24,000 nt of DNA from an uncultured Candidatus Woesearchaeota archaeon (GTDB taxonomy: Archaea; Nanobdellota; Nanobdellia; Woesearchaeales; UBA10107). Where the stretch lies: the NCBI GenBank assembly GCA_963835585.1, contig CAWIGF010000003.1, positions 281,376 to 305,375 of the forward strand, in the 5' to 3' direction. Shown here piece by piece: positions 3,070 through 24,000 of this stretch. The notes beneath the pieces were generated by a model that worked only from the letters and a program-made list of their open reading frames with translations, had not been told where the DNA came from and did not search any database. Position 1 is the first letter of the stretch; every line of letters begins with the position of its first letter. Made by a program: the position numbers and the translations under genes.

Positions 3070-3360
3070 TTTACCCCGTACAGATTATTTTGTTATTCAA
3101 GACTGATTGTCATGCATACATTTTGAGGTATATAAATATTAACACTATTGACAATATTCAGAATATACATGATTTTATTTCATCAGAAAAAATGTAATAC
3201 CCCCAACGTGCGGGAAGACTTCGTTCAAAGCACTGTGGTTTATAGCGTCTGTAGCTTGCTTTATACGCATTTATAGACATTCAGACTATTTTAATCTTTT
3301 CTTTTCATTCGTAATTTATTGAAACTCTAAAAAATATTTTTAGAAATTATGATTGTGCAT

Positions 3361-3466
3361 TTTTAAATCGTTTCCCGACCCTGTTCAAGCCGCGACGAGC
3401 TGAAACAATGGCAAGGCCGAGCCTGCCGACCCTACATTTCTTCCCCATATTGACTGCGCCACGGGA
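3361..3466. repeat. Copy 1 of a ~105-nt direct repeat unit in a gene-free island
   Basis: 3361-3381 is identical to 3646-3666 (21/21). 3419-3436 is identical to 3704-3721 (18/18). The 37 nt between these blocks are unrelated in the two copies, and about 30 nt of partial similarity follows. The offset is exactly 285 bp. Confidence 0.8.
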
Positions 3467-3645
3467 GAGAAACCTGGCAAAATGTTTCATGCCTAAACGG
3501 CCTAAATTTCGCCACTGTCCTTTGAAAAATGCATTTCACGGCCTAAATTCGATTTAGATAATAACAACATACCTCTTTGCTATCATTAGGGCGGAGCAGG
3601 CCGTAGCTAGGCCGATGTGTAAAAATTCTATCCTCAAAAAATAAT

Positions 3646-3752
3646 TTTTAAATCGTTTCCCGACCCAAATGAACGCCTAGTTCGCCGAATGTCAGCCGAC
3701 GCAGAGCCTGCCGACCCTACAATTTCTCCATATACTGACCGCGGTCCGGGAC
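3646..3752. repeat. Copy 2 of the ~105-nt direct repeat unit
   Basis: See copy 1. Each conserved block contains CCGACCC (GGGTCGG on the minus strand), giving four copies in total. Confidence 0.8.
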
Positions 3753-3821
3753 CGAGCCATCTCTCTAGAACAAAATCAAAACTAATCAATCATGCATGAA
3801 TGATGCGAAGAAGCAAAGAAA

Positions 3822-3865
3822 GTCCGTGAAAGAGCCAAAAGAACGCGACACGTAAAGCAACGGAC
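3822..3865 (-). terminator. Hairpin plus T-rich tract downstream of the HEPN gene (possible terminator)
   Basis: GTCCGT (3822-3827) pairs with ACGGAC (3860-3865). On the minus strand the hairpin is followed by TTTCTTTGCTTCTTC. It lies 25 nt after the HEPN stop codon. Confidence 0.3.
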
Positions 3866-3889
3866 CACTTCACAAAAGGCATGAGTTTC

Positions 3890-4291
3890 TCATACCACTT
3901 TTGTCTTGACAACCGCTTTCAATTTCTGTATGACCGCAAGGAGTTTGTCTTTGTTGTTGCGTACATATACCAATTCTATCTGTTTCCCCTCGTACATGCT
4001 CTTGTTCCTGCGTATGCGCAGGTCATCGATGAGCGCGATCTCGTCCTGGTGGAGCTCATGGTAATTTGAAAGATAATCGACGAGGTCCTTGTGCGCATTC
4101 TCGCCTGCCGTCTTGTAACCGTCCGCAAGCGCGATGGCGGTCATAAGTTCCTTTAGTATCTCATAGTAGCTTTCAGCGATCATGGTGGGGAACGTATCCA
4201 TGTTGATATTTTTTGTATACGCTTCCCGTTGCTCGACGAGCTTTACGATCGCCTGTGCACGTTCCTTGTCCGGTGTTGTCTTGATTATCAT
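3890..4291 (-). CDS. HEPN-domain protein, partner of the upstream nucleotidyltransferase (MNT/HEPN pair)
   Basis: All-helical, about 133 aa, with a C-terminal LRIRRNKSMYEG motif (R-N-x3-Y/H type HEPN signature). The ORF track starts at TTG 4297; ATG at 4291 sits 2 nt after the MNT stop. Confidence 0.65.
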   Translation of the reverse strand: MIIKTTPDKERAQAIVKLVEQREAYTKNINMDTFPTMIAESYYEILKELMTAIALADGYKTAGENAHKDLVDYLSNYHELHQDEIALIDDLRIRRNKSMYEGKQIELVYVRNNKDKLLAVIQKLKAVVKTKVV

Positions 4292-8998: not shown

Positions 8999-9093
8999 TG
9001 GACCCGCCCGGATTCGAACCGGGGACTCCCACCACGTCAAGGTGATGTCATAACCATTGTCCGCCATGATTGGTGGCTCTAGACCACGGGTCC
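8999..9093 (-). tRNA. tRNA-Val (anticodon GAC) with a ~21-nt insertion in the D-loop (non-canonical intron)
   Basis: Fold: GGACCCG-UG-GUCU-AG[AGCCACCAAUCAUGGCGGACA]AUGGUUA-UGAC-A-UCACC-UUGACGU-GGUGG-GAGUC-CCCGG-UUCGAAU-CCGGG-CGGGUCC-A. The anticodon arm, T arm and acceptor stem are unambiguous. The insert boundaries are approximate. Confidence 0.75.
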
Positions 9094-10128
9094 TTTTATC
9101 TTAAAAGGTAGAATAGCATTCCTATATAAGTCTTTTTGATAGTACTGTGTAACTTCATGCCGATATATGGTTTTATTTTCAAAAAATCGCAAATAGAACC
9201 GAACGATGTGTCTGAGATTTGAACTTCCTACTTTTCTGAAGTAATTTAAAATATTCTCACCCTTGTTTGTTCCAATTTGGGTCTCATCTTTTGATACATA
9301 ACTGAATAAGTCATGCTTGTCTGATATTTGTTTTACTTGCCGGATTAGATTTTTATTATGAGATGTGAAAACAATACAAAATTGGGAGCCATCTCTTCCT
9401 CTGCGAGAAATCGATCCATCAGTATCAATAAGCCCCCTTAGACAGGCTAGTGATAATTTAGAACTTTGTAATATGCTTTTAGGGATCAACGTGTTATTCC
9501 TGATTTTATCCCCATATTCTATTCCAAATTTGTCGTGTAGGAACATACAGAAATTTTTTGAAGAAATCGTAAGATACAATGTATTTCTAGTTTTATCATT
9601 TTCTTTTAAGATGTGTGCATCTATTCCAAAAATATCAAAAATTAATTTTTGAAGGTAGTTGAAATACGGCAAGTCATATCTGGCATCTCCCGAGATTTTA
9701 AGAAAGTATTTTGTTAAGGTTCCATCTCCTAAGTGCGCTCCAATGAACTCTGCAAGTCGTTCATCAAGGATGGGTATTTTAATCTGTTTTGCGTTCGAAT
9801 AGTGGAATTTTGATATGCCTTTTTTTCTCCATTCAACTAGTTCTCTTTTGTATTTTCTTAGCAATGTTTTTGCTCCTTTTTGTCCGCCAATGCGTTTCCC
9901 CCAATTTTCTGGCAGATAAGATGCTTCAAAATCTTTTTCTTTCTTATGAGATAATTTCAAAAGTTTTTCAAATATTTCCTTGGGCAGCAGCATATTTTCT
10001 TGAAAATAATTCTTTAGGGTTGGGTATGGAATTTGCAACCGTTGAGCAACAGTATTCAAAGAATTATGTTTTTGCATTGTTGCAGCAATTAATTTACGTT
10101 GTTCTCCTTTTTTTAGCTTCACCCTCAT
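9079..10128 (-). CDS. Free-standing double-motif LAGLIDADG homing-endonuclease-like protein with N-terminal HTH
   Basis: Two LAGLIDADG motifs: LAEFIGAHLGDGTL and LACLRGLIDTDGSI. The N-terminal NSLNTVAQRLQIPYPTLKNYF is HTH-like. The last 4 codons plus the stop codon overlap the 5' 15 nt of tRNA-Val. Confidence 0.8.
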   Translation of the reverse strand: MRVKLKKGEQRKLIAATMQKHNSLNTVAQRLQIPYPTLKNYFQENMLLPKEIFEKLLKLSHKKEKDFEASYLPENWGKRIGGQKGAKTLLRKYKRELVEWRKKGISKFHYSNAKQIKIPILDERLAEFIGAHLGDGTLTKYFLKISGDARYDLPYFNYLQKLIFDIFGIDAHILKENDKTRNTLYLTISSKNFCMFLHDKFGIEYGDKIRNNTLIPKSILQSSKLSLACLRGLIDTDGSISRRGRDGSQFCIVFTSHNKNLIRQVKQISDKHDLFSYVSKDETQIGTNKGENILNYFRKVGSSNLRHIVRFYLRFFENKTIYRHEVTQYYQKDLYRNAILPFKIKGPVV

Positions 10129-11515: not shown

Positions 11516-14500
11516 TTATTGCCAGATCTTTCTTATTCCCAAGAATAGCAATAAACCTATTACAACTGTTGCGATGCTTACTCCTACACCAACTGGGACT
11601 GATGGTGTTCCGTGTGCTATCTCTCCTGATATTTTGATTACGCCGTTGGCTACTTGCTGAGGCACTGAAGGCGTGCTGACTAACGGAGTTGCAGTAGGCT
11701 CTGTCATGAACAACTTCAAATTGACGTTCGTATTCTGGTCAGGCTGTTCATAATTGACTCCAAGGTTCGTTACGAGCAATTGTCTATCCTTTACATTGAA
11801 ATTGTAAACATCATTCAGGTATCCTGTCCTTGTAGCATCTGAAGGACTTAGACGCAACATTACTTCGTTGCCTGTTCCTATTTTGTCCACAAGCAGGCTG
11901 TAAGTTGTCCCTTGGTATACGAACATGATGGTATCTATTTCACGTATAGATTTTGTCAATGGATTCTCCTGGGTTATGTTCCACAAGTAGTGCTGTGGCG
12001 AGACTATGGTAGGATTGTTGACTGAATTAAGCAAGCCTCCACCTGAAGATGATTCTGGCAATATCATTGGTTGCACATCGACATTAGTCTCTGTTGCGTT
12101 TGCTGAAAGCCCGATGTTATCGGTGACTTTCAGAGTGACGGTGTATCTTTCTATGGCCGTATATGAGTGAGGTACTGATGAATGCGAAGAATTCAATAAA
12201 TTAGTTCCATCCCCGAATGTCCAACTGTAAATAAGAGGACCATTTGCGTCACTTACTGTTGGCGTGAACACAATGTCCGCTGGATAGATTGTGCTTGGTG
12301 CGTAACTGAAACTTACAACTGGTGACTGTGGTGGTATGCCATTGACAGGTCCTGTGTATGTCACATTGTTGATTGTCATGTTGCCGCTGACCAAATTTCC
12401 GTTTGACACGTTAGCATTGGTGAAAACAACTCCCGTTGCTGTCGTGTTGTCAATGAACGAATTTGTCGCGTTGACATTGTTCAAGTTTGAGTTGGTGATT
12501 GTTGAATTTACTGAAACAACATTCACAAGCGTATCGTTTATGACCGTCGAATTTTCTATGTCGCTGCCAGTTACCTGTGAATTTTGGACAGTGCTTCCTG
12601 AAATGGTGCTGCTTGCAATTGTCGATGAGGAGACATTGCTGTCCGATACCGTTGAATTTGTAATTGTTGATGAATATATGTTGCTATTATCTGAAATGGT
12701 TGAGTTCGAAATTTGTGAGTTGTTGACTGAACTGCCGTCTATTGAGCTTCCTATGATTGTTGAACTTTCCGTTACGCTTGAACCATTTGTTATGTTCGAC
12801 TGGCTTACAGTTGAATCTTGTACTGCTGAGTTGTTTACTAACGAGTCGATTACGTGTGAATCATTGATATTAGCTCCTGAAAGGTAATCGTTGATTATTG
12901 TCGAGTATGTGGCATTTGAATTAAGCACAGTCGAATTTGTTATTGTCGAACCTGTGGTTACGCTGTTCATAACTGTTGAAGGGTCTATTACTTCATTGAG
13001 GCAATTGTACGATGGTTCATTTTCATAAATAGAACCTATAATTGTGCAATTGAAGAGGCTGTTTGCAATAACCATTGATCCTCCTAAGACTGTTGAAATA
13101 TTTATACTTGTTATTACATTTGCAGTTGAATCATTTATTCCTGATTGCGAATCTATAGCAACGCTAGTGATTTGATATGAGGCGTTTGCTGGGTAATATA
13201 CGCTGTTGATTGTTGAATTGAAGATGTTGTTTGTAACATTAACAGGCGGGATTACAACAGTTCCGTTGTTCTGCAGTGTCGTGAAAGAGAATGGTCCTGC
13301 TGTCGAGCAGTTGCTGATAAGATTTACATTGCATGCAGTTATGTTGTAGCTGTATGTTGTTGCATTCAAGAGTGCGAGAGGGATTACGCTGAATGAAGTT
13401 CCTGCTTGGTTGAATGTTCTGACTCCGAATAGATTAAGCGTGCTATTTGCCAAAATATCTGTGTTCCAACCTATTATTACAGAACTATTCGTGATTGAGG
13501 AGTTTGTGACGTTTGATATCACTGGTGCTGCGGTGCTGTTTGTCATGTTTATTGGCGGAATAACAATACTTCCATTGTTGTTCAATGTCGTGAACGAGAA
13601 CGGCCCTGCTATTGTGCAGTTGTTGTATATGTTGCATGCTGTTATGTTGTAATTATATGTTGTTGAGTTTACAAGTCCAGGCACGAAAACTGAACTATAT
13701 TGAGTTGTGTCATTAGTGAATGTCCCGACTCCGAATATGTCCAATGTGCTGTTAGTTATCTCGCTTGTCGCCCAATCCAAAGTGACTGAATCGTTTGTAG
13801 CAGTGACGTTAGATAATACGATGAATGGTGTCGAAGTGTCGTTGCCTGGCGGTATAACCACCGATCCGTTATTGTTAAGTGTGGTGAACTGGAATGGGCC
13901 TGCGGATGAGCAGTTGATGTACATGTTGCATGCCGTTATGTTGTAATAATATGTTGTCGAATTTGTAAGATTGCTAACTGGAACCGAGTATGATGTTCCT
14001 GAGACAAAAGTAAGTCCATTCAATACTAAAGTACTGTTGGTTGCTTCATTTGTCGTCCAGTTGATAATTGCAGATTCATTTGTTATATCAGAGACATTTA
14101 CATTTGAGATTACTGGCGCCGAAGTATCATTTACAGGTGGAATTACGACTGCTGTACTGTTGTAAGTGTAGATTGCAGTTACAGCTCCATTGCCGTTTAC
14201 ACTGATGTTCGTGGTTTGCGAATTAGGACTTGTAACGCTTACGTTTCCTGTAGTGTTCCATGAATCGAACACGTAGCTTGCGTTCAATGGATTATATGTT
14301 ACCGTGTAGTTTCCTGAATAAACTACGCTTGGTGTTGTATTTGGAAGACTCATTAACAAAGACTCTGGTGTTATGATGCCGTTGAGAATCACAGTGACAT
14401 TGAACGTGACACTTCCTATATCTGAAGGATTGCTTGCGTTAGTGTCAATTCCATCGAATGAAACTGAATACAAAGAAAGAGGAGGTCCTGGTATAGGAAC

Positions 14501-16735
14501 TACGATTACACTTTGCGTTGCTGATGTGCCGCTGACTCCTTCTGCGTCAGTCGCTGTTAGCGTTACATTGTATGTGCCGTTAACCAAATACTGATGAGTC
14601 GGATTTTGCAGGTTTGATGTGCTTCCGTCCCCGAAATTCCATGTCCAATTTGTGATTGCATAGGGTGAAGATGAAGTGTCCGTGAAGTTAAGAGTGTCAT
14701 TTACATTCACTGAAGAGCCATGGAGATATGCGAAACCTTGGATTGAGATATTGAAATTGGCAACTACATTATCGTAAGTGTAGATTGCAGTTACAGCTCC
14801 ATTGCCGTTTACACTGATGTTCGTGGTTTGCGAATTAGGACTTGTAACGCTTACGTTTCCTGTAGTATTCCATGAGTCAAACACGTAGCTTGAGTTCAAT
14901 GGAGTGTACGTTACTGTGTAGTTTCCAGGATATACACCTGTTGCAGTGACTGGAAGAGGTGTCTCATTGGTAATTATTGTGTCGACCCCATTTACGACAG
15001 CTGTAAATCCGCTGAACGTGATGTTTCCAAGATTAGTTGGATTTGTGTCAGCTCCGTTGAATGAGACTGAAAATGTGGAAGGAGCAGGCATAGGAACAAC
15101 AAGAACTGTCTGCGTTGCTGATGTGTTGCTGACTCCATCTGAGTCAGTTACAGTAAGGTCGATGTTGTATGTTCCAGGAGTCGAGTATTGATAAGTTGGA
15201 TTTTGTGACGTTGATATATTTCCGTCTCCGAAATCCCACAATCGGCTTGCTATGTTGTCGTATGAATAAGAATTATCCGTGAAGTTAAGAGTCTGATTTA
15301 CAAAAACCTGATAGACTGGAAGAGGAGGTGCTCCTGAAAGTGAAATAGTGAAATTAGCGATTGGAGCTATGTCATTGACTGTGATTTGCTGCGGTACTGG
15401 AGCAAATCCAACTCCGTCAGAGTCAGTTACCATAAGTGTTACTGGATATGTCCCGTTCTTCAAGTAGGTATGAGTAGGATTTGTTTGATTTGATGTCTGT
15501 CCATCGCCGAAGTTCCATAACTGTGAGACGATCGGATCAAGCGGCGTTCCTGGAGTCGAAAGATCAGTGAACGTGATACTTTGATTCTCTGTTATCGTTG
15601 TCGCGCTTTGCGTGAACGCTGTGTTCGGAGCTACATCACTGACCTGCACATAGGTTATATTACTTGCACTCACACCATCAGTGTCAGTTATGGTAAGATT
15701 GATTGCGTATGTTCCTTTCAAGAGGAATGTGTATGAAGGCGAAACTGTATTTCCGAAGACAGTTCCGTTCGAGAATGACCATACATACGTCAATGGCAAA
15801 TCATAGCCTGTCGATAATGCTCCGTTGAATGTTACTAGTTGATTTTCAAGCGATGTCTGGTTCGCTCCTGCATTTGCGATTGGAGGTATATCATTTACAA
15901 TAATGTTTTGTATACTTGAATTTGTAACGCCGTCAGAATCAGTTGAAGTAAGATTGATTGTGTATGTTCCGTTCTTCAAGTAAACGTGATTAGGATTTTG
16001 CAATGCTGAGGAACTTCCATCTCCAAATACCCAATTCCATGCAACTATTGTATCATAACCATGAGATAAGTCAGTGAAATTGACCTGAGCTCCTTCGTTT
16101 ACTGGATTTGGTGTGAAACTGAAGTTTGCGACTGGAGCTATATCAGAGATAGTGGCAGTAGTGCTTACTGTTGATGATCCGTTGTCAGAATCGGTAGCTG
16201 TGAAAGTTACTGTGTATGTTCCGTTCTTCAAGTAAACGTGATTAGGATTTTGCAATGCTGAGGAACTTCCATCTCCGAATGTCCAGTTGTACGAGACAAT
16301 TGTATCGCCATCGACAGGATCTGATGCTGTTCCGATGAATTTTATTGATTGATTTTCAATTCCATTGTAAGGTCCGTTTGTAATGGATGTCACAGGCAGT
16401 GCGTTCTGGATCGTTACCTGGCTTGAGCCCTGCAAGGCGCTTGGTATGTTGATTATTTTTCCGCCAACCATTGCAACTGTCGAGGCAGACCATACTTCGC
16501 ATTTCCATACATCACCATGAGTGGTATATGCCGAACTTAATGTTGAACCGATTGTGTCAGAGAATAAAACGCCGTTCTTGAACCATTTGTACACGTATTG
16601 TGAACCTGAAGGTGAGCAGCTCAAATCCTGATTGTGGAATGGAGTGCTTGGCGTTATTGTTACGCTGAGTGCCGCAACAGAAGCCAAACTAATCAAAAAT
16701 AAGAATACTATTGAAAGTAATTTTGTTTGCTTCAT
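11516..16735 (-). CDS. Giant (1739 aa) mosaic cell-surface protein: signal peptide, Ig-like domain, 7 PKD domains, 2 B-repeat-like modules, 3 Fn3-like domains, S/T/N-rich 5-residue-repeat region, C-terminal TM anchor
   Basis: Start moved to MKQTKLLSIVFLFLISLASVAALS (signal peptide) at 16735. PKD signatures of the type WxFGDG...NPxHxY...GTYxVxLTxTDxxG recur seven times. The Fn3-like pattern is ISNVxVSxITNxSAxIxW...TTYxYNITACN...GPFxFTT. The C-terminus is GVGVSIATVVIGLLLFLGIRKIWQ. Confidence 0.9.
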   Translation of the reverse strand: MKQTKLLSIVFLFLISLASVAALSVTITPSTPFHNQDLSCSPSGSQYVYKWFKNGVLFSDTIGSTLSSAYTTHGDVWKCEVWSASTVAMVGGKIINIPSALQGSSQVTIQNALPVTSITNGPYNGIENQSIKFIGTASDPVDGDTIVSYNWTFGDGSSSALQNPNHVYLKNGTYTVTFTATDSDNGSSTVSTTATISDIAPVANFSFTPNPVNEGAQVNFTDLSHGYDTIVAWNWVFGDGSSSALQNPNHVYLKNGTYTINLTSTDSDGVTNSSIQNIIVNDIPPIANAGANQTSLENQLVTFNGALSTGYDLPLTYVWSFSNGTVFGNTVSPSYTFLLKGTYAINLTITDTDGVSASNITYVQVSDVAPNTAFTQSATTITENQSITFTDLSTPGTPLDPIVSQLWNFGDGQTSNQTNPTHTYLKNGTYPVTLMVTDSDGVGFAPVPQQITVNDIAPIANFTISLSGAPPLPVYQVFVNQTLNFTDNSYSYDNIASRLWDFGDGNISTSQNPTYQYSTPGTYNIDLTVTDSDGVSNTSATQTVLVVPMPAPSTFSVSFNGADTNPTNLGNITFSGFTAVVNGVDTIITNETPLPVTATGVYPGNYTVTYTPLNSSYVFDSWNTTGNVSVTSPNSQTTNISVNGNGAVTAIYTYDNVVANFNISIQGFAYLHGSSVNVNDTLNFTDTSSSPYAITNWTWNFGDGSTSNLQNPTHQYLVNGTYNVTLTATDAEGVSGTSATQSVIVVPIPGPPLSLYSVSFDGIDTNASNPSDIGSVTFNVTVILNGIITPESLLMSLPNTTPSVVYSGNYTVTYNPLNASYVFDSWNTTGNVSVTSPNSQTTNISVNGNGAVTAIYTYNSTAVVIPPVNDTSAPVISNVNVSDITNESAIINWTTNEATNSTLVLNGLTFVSGTSYSVPVSNLTNSTTYYYNITACNMYINCSSAGPFQFTTLNNNGSVVIPPGNDTSTPFIVLSNVTATNDSVTLDWATSEITNSTLDIFGVGTFTNDTTQYSSVFVPGLVNSTTYNYNITACNIYNNCTIAGPFSFTTLNNNGSIVIPPINMTNSTAAPVISNVTNSSITNSSVIIGWNTDILANSTLNLFGVRTFNQAGTSFSVIPLALLNATTYSYNITACNVNLISNCSTAGPFSFTTLQNNGTVVIPPVNVTNNIFNSTINSVYYPANASYQITSVAIDSQSGINDSTANVITSINISTVLGGSMVIANSLFNCTIIGSIYENEPSYNCLNEVIDPSTVMNSVTTGSTITNSTVLNSNATYSTIINDYLSGANINDSHVIDSLVNNSAVQDSTVSQSNITNGSSVTESSTIIGSSIDGSSVNNSQISNSTISDNSNIYSSTITNSTVSDSNVSSSTIASSTISGSTVQNSQVTGSDIENSTVINDTLVNVVSVNSTITNSNLNNVNATNSFIDNTTATGVVFTNANVSNGNLVSGNMTINNVTYTGPVNGIPPQSPVVSFSYAPSTIYPADIVFTPTVSDANGPLIYSWTFGDGTNLLNSSHSSVPHSYTAIERYTVTLKVTDNIGLSANATETNVDVQPMILPESSSGGGLLNSVNNPTIVSPQHYLWNITQENPLTKSIREIDTIMFVYQGTTYSLLVDKIGTGNEVMLRLSPSDATRTGYLNDVYNFNVKDRQLLVTNLGVNYEQPDQNTNVNLKLFMTEPTATPLVSTPSVPQQVANGVIKISGEIAHGTPSVPVGVGVSIATVVIGLLLFLGIRKIWQ
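12353..12970 (-). repeat. About 40 tandem 5-residue (15-bp) units inside the giant gene
   Basis: DSHVI DSLVN NSAVQ DSTVS QSNIT ... NSTIS ... SSTIT NSTVS DSNVS SSTIA SSTIS GSTVQ NSQVT GSDIE NSTVI. V or I falls at every fifth position. Confidence 0.7.
14162..15367 (-). repeat. Tandem duplication of a (PKD + B-repeat-like) two-domain module, period 612 bp
   Basis: 14162-14254 is identical to 14774-14866 (93/93 by direct reading), with high similarity beyond. The protein segment FDSWNTTGNVSVTSPNSQTTNISVNGNGAVTAIYTY is repeated exactly. Confidence 0.85.
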
Positions 16736-16739
16736 GTGC

Positions 16740-18002
16740 TTATTTTCCGGAAAATATGTCGAACAGATTTCTCCAGCTAAGTCCGACTGTTCCTTCAGGA
16801 CCTGTCTGACTTGAATGTATGTCTGCATCTGTTCCCATCCCATATGCAACATCAACATCAAAACGTAAATCTTTTGCCCAATTGCCCAAGAATGCAAAGT
16901 CGTGGTTTAATGCAGCGTGGTATCTTGTGAAATTATTTCCTTCTCCGGTGAAATTGTCTGCTCCACCGCGAAGCTCTGTCCCATCGTGAAGAATTACTCG
17001 TGCTTCCAGATTAAGGTCTTGCTCGGAAACTGGATATTCGATTCCCATGACATGACCTGCTCCTGTTCTGTCCAGTATTTGTGCAGTGATCCTTGTTTTT
17101 GTTGTGTTAGTATTGTAATCAGTTCCAAACACAAGGTTTAGTCCATTTCCTTTTTGATCGTAAGGTCCGACGCTTGGAGCGTTTCCATCAGTGTTTTGCC
17201 AATTCCATCCGCCAAGCACAAATGGTGTTATACCATTTCCGACGTCAATGCCTGCACCGAGCGCAGCATCTCCTGCAAGAAGACTGAGCGTTTGTTTGTC
17301 TCCATCGACATCCAAGCTTTGTTTTGGCGCAAATTCGCCGTTAAGTGAAAGTATGATTGATATGTCGTCCTTTTTAACAACAGGTCGTGCATATACTTTG
17401 AAATCAGGTCCGTTGTTTGTTGCGACTGACTTGAATGGAGCGGCTCCGCTTCCTTCAATTGGTTGTGAATTTATTTGCGAATATGTCCATCCTGCGAATC
17501 CGCCGTCTTCCATTGTGAAATCAGAAATATTTTTTGCAGTTGCAGAATTTGATTGTGCAACAACTTTACTCATATCTATGACATTAGGTTCGTAGACTGT
17601 GGGCGCTCCTGCATTTTGCGTGAATGTTACTGGTGCGCCTGTTGCAGATTTTCCGTCAGTTGCGTATGCATTTAGAACTCCTCTCTTAACTCCTCGTATT
17701 TGCGCAGGATTTATTTTGAGAGTGACCTTGCGTCTTGCTTTTGTTTTCTTGATAGGGCTTCCCTTTATTGTATTTCCATGATTAGGTGAGCTTTGATCTC
17801 CATTTAAGATATCTATATATGTAACTGGTTGCGAAGGGGATTTTGGTTGAACATATACAGTGATATTTGATTTATCTGCATGGTATTGAGCATTATCTAT
17901 TGTTGGTTTTGCGTATGCAGAACCTATTGCTAAGAATGTCGCAGTAATTGTTGGTGCGACGTATTTGACACATTTCCCGTACATGTTTCGGATAGTATTC
18001 AT
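16740..18002 (-). CDS. Secreted beta-rich protein (420 aa) with a porin-like C-terminal half; first gene of the surface operon
   Basis: Signal-like N-terminus ...VAPTITATFLAIGSAYA|KP. It has no TM helices. The C-terminal half consists of short amphipathic strands separated by G/N/D turns. Its stop lies 4 nt before the giant gene's ATG. Confidence 0.7.
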   Translation of the reverse strand: MNTIRNMYGKCVKYVAPTITATFLAIGSAYAKPTIDNAQYHADKSNITVYVQPKSPSQPVTYIDILNGDQSSPNHGNTIKGSPIKKTKARRKVTLKINPAQIRGVKRGVLNAYATDGKSATGAPVTFTQNAGAPTVYEPNVIDMSKVVAQSNSATAKNISDFTMEDGGFAGWTYSQINSQPIEGSGAAPFKSVATNNGPDFKVYARPVVKKDDISIILSLNGEFAPKQSLDVDGDKQTLSLLAGDAALGAGIDVGNGITPFVLGGWNWQNTDGNAPSVGPYDQKGNGLNLVFGTDYNTNTTKTRITAQILDRTGAGHVMGIEYPVSEQDLNLEARVILHDGTELRGGADNFTGEGNNFTRYHAALNHDFAFLGNWAKDLRFDVDVAYGMGTDADIHSSQTGPEGTVGLSWRNLFDIFSGK

Positions 18003-18097
18003 TGTTATTCCCCCAACTAATTACACTTTGTTCTAACCAACCCCTCGTACTTGGATATGTTACTCATATATAAATGTTTTCATCAATAGTTATTATG

Positions 18098-18127
18098 TAG
18101 TAGTAACAAAATAAGGTACTATATATT
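18098..18127 (+). promoter_or_regulatory. Recurrent promoter-like module, copy C, orphan
   Basis: TAGTAGTAACAAAATAAGGTACTATATAT. It lies in the 265-bp gap between two minus-strand genes. Confidence 0.35.
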
Positions 18128-18267
18128 TTCAGTATAGAAAACAATTAACAGCATTCAGAGGGGATGCCAAAAAGGAGTAAAGCCTCTAAATTTTATATAC
18201 TGTGCAGGTAACGTAGCATGTTATTTTAATATTTCTTTGCCAGAAATCCGCACACTTTATTGGTTGC

Positions 18268-19014
18268 TTATCGAGAAGCTTTCTCATACAATCTCTTAGC
18301 TTGGGCTATTGTCAGTAAGTTATTCAGTCCATTCTTTTTCAAGCTCTTTGGTTCATTCGATTCATCGAATAAATTAACACCTACCGAGGCAGCCAGTTTA
18401 TCAATTGGTCCTCCGACACTGTAATCTTTAGGTTTAATTTCACTTAACTTTTTCCCTGTTTCTATGGCATATATTCCAGTTAAGCCATATTTTCTTGCAG
18501 CTACTAAGAACTCAGGTTCCGTGTACTTTGGAACATTTGCTGATGGTGCAGTGTAACCTGCCTTATTTTCGATATGTCTAGGAACGCTTTGTTGTGAAGT
18601 AGTGGTTGTTTTGTTTGAATTCACGTAAACGCCTAATCCTATGGCAAGAACAGCCGTTGCAGGAACAAGATATCTCAAAATTCTATTTTTATAATTTTGA
18701 TTTTTATTTGTTTCATCTTGAGTTTCTTTTTTGAAGACCTCTTCGAGAAGCTTGTATCCTCTTGGTAATTTTGTAAGGGATTGCTCTAATTCATATTCGT
18801 GTCCAGGTGCTAAAACACTTAAAGCAGGTTTTGTTACTTTCCAACCAGGACCGCTATTTAGAGTTTCTTCTCCAAGCCCCAACGTTGACCAGTCTTTTGC
18901 AGGGCCTGCATGATGTTTGCCTATTGCTTCAACCACTAATTGATTTTTCTTCGCTAATTGTCTGGCTTTTCTCTCTATCTTTATTTTTTGTAATGTTAAC
19001 ATGATTTTAGGCAA
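18268..19014 (-). CDS. Hypothetical single-pass membrane protein (about 244-248 aa)
   Basis: One central TM helix (ILRYLVPATAVLAIGLGVYV). The ORF track uses TTG at 19014; ATG at 19002 is equally possible. No motif recognised. Confidence 0.55.
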   Translation of the reverse strand: MPKIMLTLQKIKIERKARQLAKKNQLVVEAIGKHHAGPAKDWSTLGLGEETLNSGPGWKVTKPALSVLAPGHEYELEQSLTKLPRGYKLLEEVFKKETQDETNKNQNYKNRILRYLVPATAVLAIGLGVYVNSNKTTTTSQQSVPRHIENKAGYTAPSANVPKYTEPEFLVAARKYGLTGIYAIETGKKLSEIKPKDYSVGGPIDKLAASVGVNLFDESNEPKSLKKNGLNNLLTIAQAKRLYEKASR

Positions 19015-19052: not shown

Positions 19053-19070
19053 TTAAGTAAATAAAATCAG

Positions 19071-19143
19071 AGCCTCCTCTGGGAATTGCACCCAGGACCT
19101 GCTGCTTACTAGGCAGCCGCTATAGCTACTAAGCCAAGGAGGC
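19071..19143 (-). tRNA. Atypical 73-nt tRNA, anticodon AGU (nominally Thr), non-canonical D and T loops
   Basis: Fold: GCCUCCU-UG-GCUU-AGUAGCUA-UAGC-G-GCUGC-CUAGUAA-GCAGC-AGGUC-CUGGG-UGCAAUU-CCCAG-AGGAGGC-U. The acceptor, anticodon and T stems are perfect. The D-loop lacks GG, and the T-loop is UGCAAUU rather than UUCRAAU. Confidence 0.6.
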
Positions 19144-19149
19144 ATGAAG

Positions 19150-19295
19150 TGCGGGAGAAGGGATTTGAACCCTCGTAGGGACTAACCCACAGGATATCTT
19201 CCTATGCAATGGTTATCCATCGCCAGGTCTTAAGTTTCGCAGAAACGACTTTCATCATTTCACCTGCGCATTTGACCAGGCTCTGCCACTCCCGC
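19150..19295 (-). tRNA. tRNA-Leu (anticodon UAA), class II, interrupted by two insertions (~27 nt and ~33 nt)
   Basis: Fold: GCGGGAG-UG-GCAG-AGCCUGGUCAA-AUGC-G-CAGGU-[27 nt, 19235-19261]-CUUAAG-[33 nt, 19196-19228]-A-UCCUG-UGGGUUAGUCCCUAC-GAGGG-UUCAAAU-CCCUU-CUCCCGC-A. The gene is 146 nt, versus about 86 nt mature. Boundaries were inferred by restoring a 7-nt anticodon loop. Confidence 0.7.
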
Positions 19296-20214: not shown

Positions 20215-20727
20215 TCAGGGTGCAGGTATATATCTGCTCAGATTCAAGTACGCTTTCAGTTCTGTATGTATGTTTTCGACGTCCTTCATCAGCCCTGCAT
20301 CGTATCGTTCCATGTATTTTTTATTGACAAACTTGTCATAGATTGTTCTCAAAAAGAAGAACAGCGGCTTTGACTCCCATCTCTCGAGAAGGTCAGTAAC
20401 AAGGAATGCACTGAAAAGTATTGTGATTTTTCCCTTGTTTATTTTTATTGGCTTGTTGTCTTTCTTGATTTCTGTCTGTATCATGTCCTTGATCATTACG
20501 CGAATGTCGATTTCATACTTCACGTAATCGCTCATCTTCTTGTAGGGCATGATCTCATAATCGATTGTTTTGCCTTTCTCTCTTACACGTTCCGTATCCC
20601 TTATCTCTTGTTTTTCATATCCTTGATTGTGGAACCATTCATCCATGAGTTTGAACAGTTCAAACGCATCAAACAGCCCTTCATATTCTATTGTCAAATC
20701 ACTGATTAGTATCTTCCTTTGCGCCAT
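20215..20727 (-). CDS. Hypothetical protein, 170 aa; paralog of the upstream gene
   Basis: It shares IEYEGLFD...W...Y, DYV.YEIDI, ...W..., F..R.IYDKF...Y with 20706-21257. It overlaps the upstream gene by 22 nt. Confidence 0.6.
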   Translation of the reverse strand: MAQRKILISDLTIEYEGLFDAFELFKLMDEWFHNQGYEKQEIRDTERVREKGKTIDYEIMPYKKMSDYVKYEIDIRVMIKDMIQTEIKKDNKPIKINKGKITILFSAFLVTDLLERWESKPLFFFLRTIYDKFVNKKYMERYDAGLMKDVENIHTELKAYLNLSRYIPAP

Positions 20728-21257
20728 GGATATGCTGTGGATTTACTCTCGAAATCCAGTACCTCCTTGAGTTTTGTTTGTAATTCGTAAGCTTCGTAGT
20801 ACATCTTCTCTTCCCATTGCTCTATTTTCCTTCGTATTATATACCTATGAAAAAAATCCCTCATTTTCCTCCTGAATGGCGTCTGATCCCATCTGCCGTT
20901 GCCTTTTTCCTGCTTCTTCCAATCCATCTCTATTGACGGAAACAAGTCAATCCTTATCATGCTTGCCTTTTTCTTTTTCTTTTTCTCCCCATTCTCGATG
21001 ACCTCGACGTCTTCGACATTATTCCCCTTTATTTTTATCTCCATGGCGTTTCTGACATAATTTGTCTCCTCGCGCTCGCCAAGAGCCTCGTATTCCATCT
21101 CATATCCGTACGTTCCTATCTTCGACACGTTCTTTGTCTCGTAGAAATCGTATTTCTTCTCCCTGAAAAAATCAAGAAACGTGTTGTATAGCCTCTCCCA
21201 ATCGAAAATGCCCTCATATTTTATCCTGACCACTCCAAGGTTTCGCTTATCGTTCAT
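20706..21257 (-). CDS. Hypothetical protein, 183 aa; paralog of the downstream gene
   Basis: Start moved from 21281 to M9 (MNDKRNLGVVRIKYEGIFD...). TATA TATTTATAA abuts the 21281 ATG. The new N-terminus aligns with the paralog's MAQRKILISDLTIEYEGLFD. Confidence 0.6.
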   Translation of the reverse strand: MNDKRNLGVVRIKYEGIFDWERLYNTFLDFFREKKYDFYETKNVSKIGTYGYEMEYEALGEREETNYVRNAMEIKIKGNNVEDVEVIENGEKKKKKKASMIRIDLFPSIEMDWKKQEKGNGRWDQTPFRRKMRDFFHRYIIRRKIEQWEEKMYYEAYELQTKLKEVLDFESKSTAYPWRKGRY

Positions 21258-21317
21258 TACCAAGGAAATCGGCACTGGCATTTATAAATATTGTCGTGTT
21301 TTTGGCCGGAAAGAAAT

Positions 21318-21901: not shown

Positions 21902-23797
21902 TTAATTGATAAGGACTTCAACGTCTTTTCCGAACAGCTCCTTGAGATTCTCAAAGATGCCCTGCTTGACGAATACCTTGTTGTTTACCTTTGCGCTTGC
22001 AATGAATTTTTCAAGTTCTTCAATGCTTGATGCCTCGACTGTACCAAGGCTTCCATCCTTGTTTATAGCCGCTCTTTGTATTTCTTTTTCCTTAGCGTCA
22101 ATATCATATGTGATGAATGCGACATCGTCAAAGAGCAGTATCTCCCCATATTTCTCCCCATATTTAACGCGTATCTTTGCCCGCTCTATTTCCTGGCCTC
22201 GCCTTCTCTGTATGTATTCAATCAGGATTCTGTTGAATTCTCTGCCTTCTTTTGCCACTTTCTCTATGTCTACCTTTGAAAGCGTCGCAAGCCTTTTTTT
22301 GGCGGCGAGAATCTCATTCAGTTTTCTTCCATACCTTTGAGGTATTTTTCCCTTGTCGACAAGTTCCGATTTGAATATCTTCAATACATCATCCTCTGGA
22401 ATTTTTTTGATTCCTTCGATGATTAATGCGTCCCGGACAATGCTTATCGTGCTGTCATGAACTTCAAGAATGCTTTCTCTTAATTTCTTTGTCTCGATTT
22501 GCTCGAACAGCTTTTGGATTCGCTTCAAGTAATCTTCCGTGTCCCGCAGCAAATCATCAATCTCCTTTCCTGTGATCTCCTTTATTTTCCCGTGTTCAAG
22601 GTCTTTGTAATAAGTTCGGATGCGCTGCAATATTTCGATATATTTCTTCTCCAGCATTTTTTCCTTTTTCACGAAAATCTCTTCCATGATCTGGATGGTC
22701 TCTTTCGGTGTTGGAGGAGGCACGCCGTAAAGCATGAGCGCTGCCTGGCTCGGGTTCAAAGTGGACCAGTATATTTCAGTGCCCACAAGATCCTTCAGTT
22801 TGTCCTTTACCCTGAATATGACTTGCTCTCCTGAACTCATGAACAGATCGATTGCTTCCTTGCTTGGCCTTATTCTCCCCATCTGAAGCAACTGCTTCCA
22901 TGGCATGAAAATTCCCCTGTCAAACAATGGAACTCCGTCCCTCAAAAGCGTGTAGAAGACTGGGTTTGCTTCTCTCAGACCTTCCCAGAAATCAGTCAAG
23001 ATGTATGTCTGGATGTGGAATTGTTTCCTAACTCCTGTTATTTGTGCCGCTTCATAGCTCATGCTGTATATTATCGACCTTAGCTTGTCCTTGAGCTCTG
23101 CTCGCGACATTCGTTTGACATCAGTGTCATCAATGATGATGTACGTGTCGATGTCATTCGATTTTTCTCCCCTGAATAAAGTTCCCGCTCCCGCATAGGC
23201 AACAATGTATTTTTCGAACTTCTCAAGGACCATGCGTTTGTGCACTTCAGATACCTTGAACGCGCCAATGACATCGCGAGGATCGTATACAGGTTGTGAT
23301 TGCGCTATAGTTTCAAGGACATCATACTTTCCATCCTCGCAGTTTGTCTTCACTTCAGTTATGAGGTGGATCTCGACGGAAAGATTCGCATCAACTTCTT
23401 TTGCCTGCTCAGTTATTATCTTTGATAATTTGTCAAGGAGTTCTTCCTTGCTCATCTTCGATGATTCGTTGTCATCGATAAGGACAAATACGTTAATTTG
23501 ATTCTTCAGCTTCTCTTCCTCTTCTTTCGTGAGCGTCTTTTTTTCTGTCTCTAACCTCTTTTTTTCTGCTTCGATATTTTTTGGTGGAAGCAATGCTATG
23601 CCAAGAATATATTTGTTGAATTTTTCAAGAACTTTTTTCTGGAACTTCTCTACTTTCTGCTGTATCGCCTTAAGTTTTTCCTTTACTTCCGGAGGAAGCT
23701 TGTTGAACTCCTGGACCAGTGGATCTTCTTGTTTCTCTTCTTTTTTAGCAGACTTGTTATTTTTCTTTCCTTTAGAAGATTTTTTCATATATTTCAT
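21902..23797 (-). CDS. Large (about 630 aa) protein with tandem nucleotidyltransferase-like domains (first degenerate, second with an intact motif)
   Basis: AYAGAGTLFRGEKSNDIDTYIIIDDTD is a pol-beta NTase G-x-x-x-RG...DxD motif. An earlier ILGIALLPP...INVFVLIDDNES resembles the same fold but lacks the Gly/Ser motif. Start moved to MKYMKKSS (23797, or 23788), because the upstream codons overlap the PIN gene and its TATA. Confidence 0.6.
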   Translation of the reverse strand: MKYMKKSSKGKKNNKSAKKEEKQEDPLVQEFNKLPPEVKEKLKAIQQKVEKFQKKVLEKFNKYILGIALLPPKNIEAEKKRLETEKKTLTKEEEEKLKNQINVFVLIDDNESSKMSKEELLDKLSKIITEQAKEVDANLSVEIHLITEVKTNCEDGKYDVLETIAQSQPVYDPRDVIGAFKVSEVHKRMVLEKFEKYIVAYAGAGTLFRGEKSNDIDTYIIIDDTDVKRMSRAELKDKLRSIIYSMSYEAAQITGVRKQFHIQTYILTDFWEGLREANPVFYTLLRDGVPLFDRGIFMPWKQLLQMGRIRPSKEAIDLFMSSGEQVIFRVKDKLKDLVGTEIYWSTLNPSQAALMLYGVPPPTPKETIQIMEEIFVKKEKMLEKKYIEILQRIRTYYKDLEHGKIKEITGKEIDDLLRDTEDYLKRIQKLFEQIETKKLRESILEVHDSTISIVRDALIIEGIKKIPEDDVLKIFKSELVDKGKIPQRYGRKLNEILAAKKRLATLSKVDIEKVAKEGREFNRILIEYIQRRRGQEIERAKIRVKYGEKYGEILLFDDVAFITYDIDAKEKEIQRAAINKDGSLGTVEASSIEELEKFIASAKVNNKVFVKQGIFENLKELFGKDVEVLIN

Positions 23798-23813
23798 AGA
23801 ATAGATAAAGGCT

Positions 23814-24000
23814 TTATAAAGGTTTCCCCAAAGATTTGGAGACAATGATATTATTTTTGGAAAATAAATTTTCAAGTTTTGCCGTGTACAAATGATGCCT
23901 GTCTCTTGTGACTATTTCAGCGTTGTTTTGCAACGCGCATGCAGCGAGCACCGCGTCGCTCGGATCAGAAATTACTTTCAATAAATCAACGCTGATAGAT
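23814..24000 (-). CDS. PIN-domain (VapC-like) protein, C-terminal 61 codons; gene continues beyond the right edge
   Basis: My own minus-strand translation from 23999: SISVDLLKVISDPSDAVLAACALQNNAEIVTRDRHHLYTAKLENLF...GKPL*. The segment D-x-x-L-A-A-x-A-x-x-x-x-A-x-I-V-T-R-D is the typical PIN C-terminal acidic-residue region. Stop TAA at 23814-23816. Confidence 0.55.
   Translation of the reverse strand, partial: SISVDLLKVISDPSDAVLAACALQNNAEIVTRDRHHLYTAKLENLFSKNNIIVSKSLGKPL

Follow-up and report, generated by a model that had tools for sequence, protein, structure and literature searches.

We have studied a stretch of 24,000 nucleotides, called here the window, from an uncultured Candidatus Woesearchaeota archaeon (assembly GCA_963835585.1, contig CAWIGF010000003.1, positions 281,376–305,375). 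It contains on its reverse strand a gene coding for a protein of 420 amino acids, which we will call the target. It is the first gene of a pair: the start of the second one, which codes for a giant adhesin, is found 4 nt after the target stop codon, and no terminator was found between them. Besides the features given in Table 1, the adhesin holds a FN3-like and Ser/Thr/Asn-rich repeat region. The target open reading frame (ORF) is a real coding gene beyond reasonable doubt. Its in-frame codon usage has a log-odds score of +0.42 bits/codon, trained on the remaining genes of the window; the other five frames are all negative. The chance of finding 420 codons without a stop at its composition is about 4e-12.

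The target had been described in the original prediction as a secreted protein with a signal-like N-terminus, no hydrophobic helix and a C-terminal half made of alternating hydrophobic and polar stretches. All the peptides then quoted (9/9) are found within its ORF. The hydrophobicity of the N-terminus is weak (Kyte-Doolittle 1.24). Directly before the mature part there is a motif formed by a small residue, Tyr and Ala or Ser, which recurs in three counterparts from related genomes. After the signal peptide no window of 19 residues exceeds a Kyte-Doolittle value of 1.15; therefore the protein has no transmembrane helix, as had been stated. The first part of the mature protein (aa 32–135) is possibly Ig-like, to judge from a low-confidence model. 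The strands of the all-β region were counted by eye; they are joined by connectors rich in Gly, Asp and Asn. Cys is absent and Pro is low. The last strand is GTVGLSWRNLF and the protein ends in ...GTVGLSWRNLFDIFSGK (...WRNLFDIFSGK): Lys is the last residue and Phe414 is found six residues before the end. N-x-S/T sequons appear at chance level, 1.2 per 100 aa; the counterparts have 0.9–1.2, the adhesin is very dense in them (5.7). The target has no paralog within the window and no internal repeat.

Table 1. Features of the target locus and of its counterparts; positions refer to the window unless a related locus is named
Feature	Position	Strand	Description
Target coding sequence	16740..18002	(-)	420 aa; stop codon 16740-16742
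Signal-peptide-like N-terminus	17910..18002	(-)	aa 1-31; MNTIRNMYGKCVKYVAPTITATFLAIGSAYA followed by KP; predicted cleavage between AYA and KP
N-terminal mature region	17598..17909	(-)	aa 32-135; short β-strands from low-confidence DSSP
Basic motif PIKKTKARRK	17724-17753	(-)	inside the N-terminal mature region
All-β region	16761..17498	(-)	aa 169-414; about 11-12 long dyad-amphipathic strands
Giant adhesin	11516..16735	(-)	1739 aa; signal peptide, 7 PKD domains, C-terminal transmembrane anchor ...GLLLFLGIRKIWQ
Archaeal factor B recognition element (BRE)/TATA-like box ACATTTATATATGAG	18063..18077	(-)	61-75 nt upstream of ATG; core invariant in four genomes
5' untranslated region (5'UTR) element GGGGTTGG	18037-18044	(-)	conserved; within region 18007..18044
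Shine-Dalgarno (SD)-like element TTGGGGGAAT	18007-18016	(-)	conserved 5'UTR; SD-like TGGGGG
Distal upstream elements GAAAATATATAG and GTTACTACTACATAATAAC	18089..18130	(-)	conserved
Conserved slot-gene promoter/5'UTR	18007-18130	(-)	L014 8631-8780; L018 5427-5576; L019 4301-4450
Variable island gene	18268..19014	(-)	248 aa; one central hydrophobic segment; without counterpart in L014 and L019
tRNA pair	19070..19295	(-)	tRNA-Thr 19070-19143; tRNA with 62-nt intron 19149-19295
L014 slot protein c407			407 aa; ATGA overlap with adhesin start
L019 slot protein c422			422 aa; about 2-nt gap to adhesin; 90% cluster has 15 members
L018 slot protein			112-aa fragment at contig end

The operon and its slot in related genomes

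A metagenome scan with a conserved 657-aa protein, encoded in the same window, gave 80 related loci. Only in the closest relatives among them is there a secreted β-rich gene of about 410 aa directly upstream of a giant PKD protein. This two-gene operon is complete in three genomes (the window and loci L014 and L019) and it is begun in a fourth one (L018). Together with the 4-nt gap it upholds the link between protein and adhesin proposed earlier. Another candidate relative (P0016/L017) was rejected, as it is an unrelated bacterial PKD protein; a query of genome contigs with the AI-2E neighbour found nothing.

The four genes which occupy this slot are similar at their 5' side. About 150 nt upstream of them are kept across the four genomes; they include a TATA block without variation, GGGGTTGG and the SD-like TGGGGG. 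All four proteins have a basic motif KKT(K), and their signal peptides share an 'xYA/S' end. There is homology between the slot proteins of L014 and L019 (E=7e-7, 23% identity), but the target has no detectable homology with them: BLASTP against c407 gives E=0.33, and hhalign against the family of both gives a probability of 0.4%. The fragment of L018 resembles the target (Smith-Waterman z=5.0, 0/300 shuffles) and not c422 (z=-0.1). The flanking proteins of L018 and L019 are nevertheless 86–91% identical, and their DNA identity collapses right past the tRNA genes. This collapse and the unalignable slot proteins show that the stretch from the tRNA genes to the adhesin is a hypervariable island; the conserved tRNA pair is its upstream border.

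The mature slot proteins fall into at least two mutually unalignable types with one shared architecture. The distribution of the types does not follow genome relatedness: the slot gene shows variation of an allelic or cassette type. This is what one would expect of surface molecules whose cassettes are replaced or which undergo diversifying selection. Surface loci in which promoter and signal peptide are kept while the mature part diverges are known, as in the allelic cassettes of type IV pilins and porins. The target slot is like them in its conserved 5' end and flanks, its unalignable mature parts and its incongruent allele types; it differs by its archaeal (DPANN) setting and by its new protein family. 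A diversity-generating retroelement was also considered as a source of variation and rejected: there is no repeat of at least 30 nt involving positions 16740–18002, hence no repeat pair of that type, and no reverse transcriptase domain in any ORF of the window.

The genome was thought to be archaeal in the original prediction, with a warning that the assembly might be chimeric. We can confirm the first point and discard the second. Two tRNAs of the window carry short introns (29 nt and 62 nt). Short introns are an archaeal trait, since those of bacterial tRNAs are long and belong to group I. TATA-box promoters are found in the window, with no excess of sigma-70-like sites. Locus L014, which we reached through the co-transcribed adhesin, lies in a 774-kb contig (GCA_965231065.1) which encodes SBDS, the exosome subunits Rrp4/Rrp41/Rrp42, RpoK and TFB. 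It is syntenic with the window, its flanking orthologs are 46–74% identical and the tRNA pair is kept. A related protein has as cluster mate GenBank HIH39387.1, labelled as Candidatus Woesearchaeota archaeon. The source contig has 681,493 bp; the GC content of the target region is unremarkable and its codon usage fits that of the neighbouring genes. Both junctions of the target, with the upstream gene and with the adhesin, are found with 100% identity in an independent Logan assembly (ERR10755942). The tRNA introns, the TATA boxes, the synteny with L014 and the Logan identity show that the contig is archaeal, of DPANN type, and not chimeric.

An orphan sequence and its β-rich region

The target has no relatives among 5.8 billion clusters at E<=10 in a word-indexed search (at E<=1e-3 it is also empty). 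An exhaustive phmmer search of 1.84 billion (1.84e9) representatives gave no match, and locus scans in GTDB genomes, JGI metagenomes and IMG/VR found nothing related. In Pfam there are no families at E<=10 for the full-length protein, nor at E<=1 for aa 195–420. NCBIfam and PHROGs gave 0 matches, and the sequence matches in the PDB are only noise. In particular, no family of outer-membrane proteins (OMPs), porins or toxins is matched in Pfam even at E<=10, which includes the β-pore-forming toxins of the aerolysin/ETX-MTX2 and leukocidin types; there is no match either to PF03865 (ShlB/FhaC) or to POTRA. By these searches the target is a strict sequence orphan and the gene family a new one. In the 90% clustering the target has been put together with unrelated peptides of 30–51 aa under a spurious representative of 51 aa, which is an artefact. 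As this representative stands for its cluster, the target is invisible, even to itself, in large protein searches.

In order to interpret the β-rich region we have used a calibration set of 13 OMP barrels from E. coli K-12 and 24 soluble secreted proteins, mostly β, all taken from annotated regions; the PKD adhesin of the same genome served as internal negative control. Dyad-amphipathic windows of 10 and 12 residues cover 36–38% of aa 201–420, which ranks with the highest values in either calibration class and exceeds the 0–29% of the adhesin segments. The alternating pattern is therefore real, as had been claimed. However it is not diagnostic for membrane barrels: dyad coverage separates OMP barrels from soluble β-proteins with an area under the curve (AUC) of only 0.63–0.72.

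The best single composition features place the target on the soluble side. Its aromatic content is 9.5% (11.4–20.5% in OMPs) and its Tyr content 2.7% (4.2–10.8%), both under all 13 E. coli barrels, while its aliphatic content is at or above the OMP maximum. The last residue of the barrels is Phe in 11 of the 13, Trp in LamB and Leu in NanC; a β-signal with an aromatic or hydrophobic last residue is not found in the target, with its terminal Lys.

Other tests had to be rejected. The terminal-aromatic fraction is 0.31 in the target and 0.33–0.75 in OMPs, but this aromatic-girdle statistic misclassifies the adhesin, giving false positives on a PKD protein of the same genome. An automated test of alternation in connector length has an AUC of 0.36–0.49, and its strand caller finds only six of the eight strands in OmpA and in OmpX. 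The connector lengths read by eye in the target are 21-4-13-3-16-4-4-4-17-7-14; since the automated test is powerless, their alternation is only a subjective hint. Scores from pairwise HMMER comparisons with single E. coli OMPs did not rise above noise. The net result of the calibrated tests is ambiguous, with a borderline composition.

Readings of the locus

We think that the target, which heads a conserved operon of two genes with the giant membrane-anchored PKD-repeat adhesin in second place, is a cysteine-free, all-β extracellular protein exported by Sec. The operon lies in a hypervariable surface island, bordered by tRNAs, of a DPANN archaeon with a small genome (clade label Candidatus Woesearchaeota). 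The target would be made in step with the adhesin and would act together with it at the cell surface, where the cell meets its host, as a co-receptor, a cap or a docking partner. Its C-terminal region of about 250 aa would be a large antiparallel β-sheet domain (a sandwich, a jelly-roll or a soluble barrel) and not a porin dependent on the β-barrel assembly machinery (BAM). We give a probability of about 0.5 to this reading as a whole: an extracellular adhesin partner at the host-contact interface, under diversifying selection, with a β-domain which is not a classical outer-membrane porin. The lack of a match to any OMP family, the low content of aromatics and Tyr, the high aliphatic content and the non-aromatic C-terminus all suggest it. 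A soluble β-domain was the conservative alternative of the original prediction, and we consider it at least as likely.

DPANN cells depend on hosts: they lack most biosynthesis, attach to another cell and take metabolites and lipids from it. For these processes the locus offers a concrete, clonable candidate: a conserved module of a secreted all-β partner and a giant adhesin. A conserved promoter and signal peptide with a hypervariable mature part is a signature of molecules at the host-symbiont interface. If the soluble β-domain is true, the locus would still serve to mark how host range varies among Woesearchaeota.

Several observations weigh against an adhesin partner with a soluble domain. 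The dyad coverage of the target is equal to that of the best OMPs. A composition classifier with a leave-one-out AUC of 0.99 gives 0.66 to aa 201–420, at the lower edge of the range of true barrels (0.63–0.95); soluble controls do not exceed 0.35, except the NanM propeller with 0.69 (only 1/24 above the target), and segments of the adhesin have 0.06–0.27. The Gly content of 13% is OMP-like. Gly on the polar faces of strands (AUC 0.91) amounts to 0.22 in the target, within the OMP range; in soluble proteins it does not exceed 0.21, and in the adhesin it is 0–0.09. The structure prediction suggested as a check does not help the soluble fold: AlphaFold2 without an alignment gave a pLDDT of 32 for the full length and 30 for aa 160–420, so that the models are unusable and decide neither for a barrel nor for a soluble fold. 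Finally, the best Pfam match of the L014 slot protein c407 is OMP_b-brl (PF13505), with E=1.6e-3 (7.6e-4 for the β-region alone), and it also matches ShlB/FhaC with E=2.6e-3 and 1.2e-3. These two matches are reproducible, and none of 20 controls (reversed archaeal proteins, shuffles, reversed true OMPs and reversed soluble β-proteins) matched an OMP barrel or gave anything better than E=0.06, which is suggestive of an OMP-like nature.

The signal in the sister-type proteins is however suggestive and not significant. The OMP_b-brl match of c407 covers 140/175 profile positions and has 19–20 bits, under a cut-off of 28.7; the ShlB/FhaC match has 17.7–18.9 bits, under 22.7. The best match of c422 is an Autotransporter β-domain with E 0.14–0.22. 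A batch scan of 51 secreted-type proteins of the clade gave about ten unrelated matches at E=0.002–0.007, which puts the matches of c407 at the upper limit of the background. Both c407 and c422 reach only 0.16–0.20 with the E. coli composition classifier. As the sequences of c407 and the target are not detectably homologous, whatever signal there is would carry over to the target by position and shared architecture only.

The strongest competitor, possible but in our view on the unlikely side, is that the C-terminal 250 aa form a transmembrane barrel of 10–12 strands, which would insert without BAM into the membrane of the host or into an unrecognised archaeal outer membrane. It would be delivered beside the adhesin and serve as a conduit for metabolites or lipids. 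For the outer-membrane-like barrel of the original prediction the evidence is divided: the Gly composition, the classifier and the polar-face Gly agree with it; the family searches, the aromatics, the Tyr content and the C-terminus do not. Also in its favour are the 11–12 long amphipathic strands with short and long connectors which alternate by eye, the lack of Cys and the low Pro, a last strand similar to a β-signal, the matches of c407 and c422 which the controls did not give, and a tight coupling to the adhesin in a cell which depends on a host. The low scores of c407 and c422, the position of the c407 matches at the edge of the noise and the powerless connector test speak against it. Moreover, Omp85/TpsB was not detected in archaea in a UniProt-wide survey (PMC4104836). 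A few archaea have been reported as double-membraned, or diderm (PMC8871954).

The target may be compared with the small bacterial OMP barrels of PF13505 (OmpA/OmpX/OmpW/NanC-type, 8–12 strands). It is like them in its signal peptide, its lack of a helix, about 250 aa of dyad strands, its Gly/Asp/Asn connectors, the absence of Cys and a last strand of the form G-x-G-Φ-x-Φ-x-x-x-F, besides the weak match of its sister type c407. It differs by the lack of a family match, by fewer aromatics and Tyr and more aliphatics than in the 13 E. coli barrels, by its ...FDIFSGK end, by an additional N-terminal region of about 130 aa, and by being found in an archaeon without known outer membrane or BAM. If the membrane barrel is true, Archaea would have their first family of OMP-like barrels, and the target would exemplify insertion without BAM. 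A broader proposal is that DPANN archaea of Woesearchaeota type make such BAM-less barrels together with a giant adhesin, both expressed from a hypervariable locus. The barrels would be inserted into the membrane of the partner cell, or into an outer layer of the envelope that has escaped recognition, and would form a channel which taps the host, with allele types matched to hosts. We find this doubtful.

The β-barrel pore-forming toxins (aerolysin/ETX-MTX2, α-haemolysin/leukocidin) need no BAM to enter foreign membranes, and each monomer contributes a single amphipathic hairpin. The target is similarly secreted, soluble-looking, all-β and helix-free, but its amphipathic strands span the whole region of 250 aa and it has no Pfam match to these toxins. 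Another likeness, by description only, is with the PopA-like superfamily of bacterial predators, porin-like lipid-trapping β-proteins of a cell which lives on another one, for which one possible distant archaeal relative has been described, in Altiarchaeales (PMC12228718).

It is improbable that the target serves the adhesin as a platform for export or anchoring, in the manner of TpsB (ShlB/FhaC) or of a fimbrial usher, and helps it to cross the S-layer or envelope or to attach there. The order of the genes recalls two-partner secretion (TpsB with TpsA), with a β-rich secreted protein co-transcribed next to a giant repeat adhesin, translationally coupled in three genomes, and ShlB is one of the two weak matches of c407. 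But the target has no POTRA or ShlB match, and its 420 aa fall short of the roughly 550 aa of TpsB proteins. No outer-membrane transporter is needed by the adhesin, which carries a signal peptide and a C-terminal transmembrane anchor of its own, and hypervariability is unexpected for a conserved machine. Bacterial contamination, a chimera or a recent transfer, with a bacterial OMP on a misassembled contig, would explain the OMP-like look of the sequence but is effectively refuted by a codon usage and GC in keeping with the surroundings, by the same slot and promoter in four independent assemblies of related archaea, by the Logan contig across both junctions and by the lack of any bacterial homolog in large protein and genome searches.

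Other features of the window

The leader of the target, of about 40 nt, has the G-rich blocks GGGGTTGG and TTGGGGG, which may have a regulatory role. The variable island of L019 contains a Fic/DOC-family gene (3663–4178, (+); Pfam E=1.9e-5), flanked by the tRNAs on one side and the slot gene on the other; it is absent from L018, L014 and the window.

The intron of the tRNA at 19149–19295 (-) has 62 nt and is found at position 37/38. ARAGORN calls this tRNA Ile(aat), which is doubtful because its positional ortholog in L014, without intron, is tRNA-Leu(taa). The 29-nt intron is found in a tRNA at 8999–9093 (-), at the non-canonical position 23/24. Beside it there is a free-standing ORF (9079–10128, (-)) similar to LAGLIDADG homing endonucleases, with an N-terminal helix-turn-helix. 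The syntenic position of L014 has no LAGLIDADG gene; therefore it looks like the insertion of a mobile element beside a tRNA gene.

The 657-aa protein used for the metagenome scan (21902–23875, (-)) has no Pfam or NCBIfam match. It is 74% identical in L014, and at least 158 relatives with an identity of about 50% occur in metagenomes. It seems to be an uncharacterised protein with wide conservation in the archaeal group of the target. Two of its stretches are like minimal nucleotidyltransferase motifs (e.g. GAGTLFRGEKSNDIDTYIIIDD). The window also encodes two tandem overlapping paralogs of 170 and 191 aa (20215–20727 and 20706–21281, (-)) with no known domain, about 21–27% identical across the pair in cross-genome comparisons; the pair is kept in L014, L018 and L019.

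A different locus, L056, has on a contig with the archaeal marker gene another OMP-looking orphan of the clade, of 208 aa (13413–14039, (+)). It has no Pfam match, a classic signal peptide, dyad β-strands throughout and a canonical OMP-style C-terminus ...YNVGGFGKVSF. The window also has a direct repeat of 51 nt (3416–3466 and 3701–3751) with 78% identity, its copies 285 nt apart. It is found in a stretch of about 800 nt (3070–3890) without any ORF of 100 aa or more, and possibly corresponds to a small RNA or to a degenerate gene pair.

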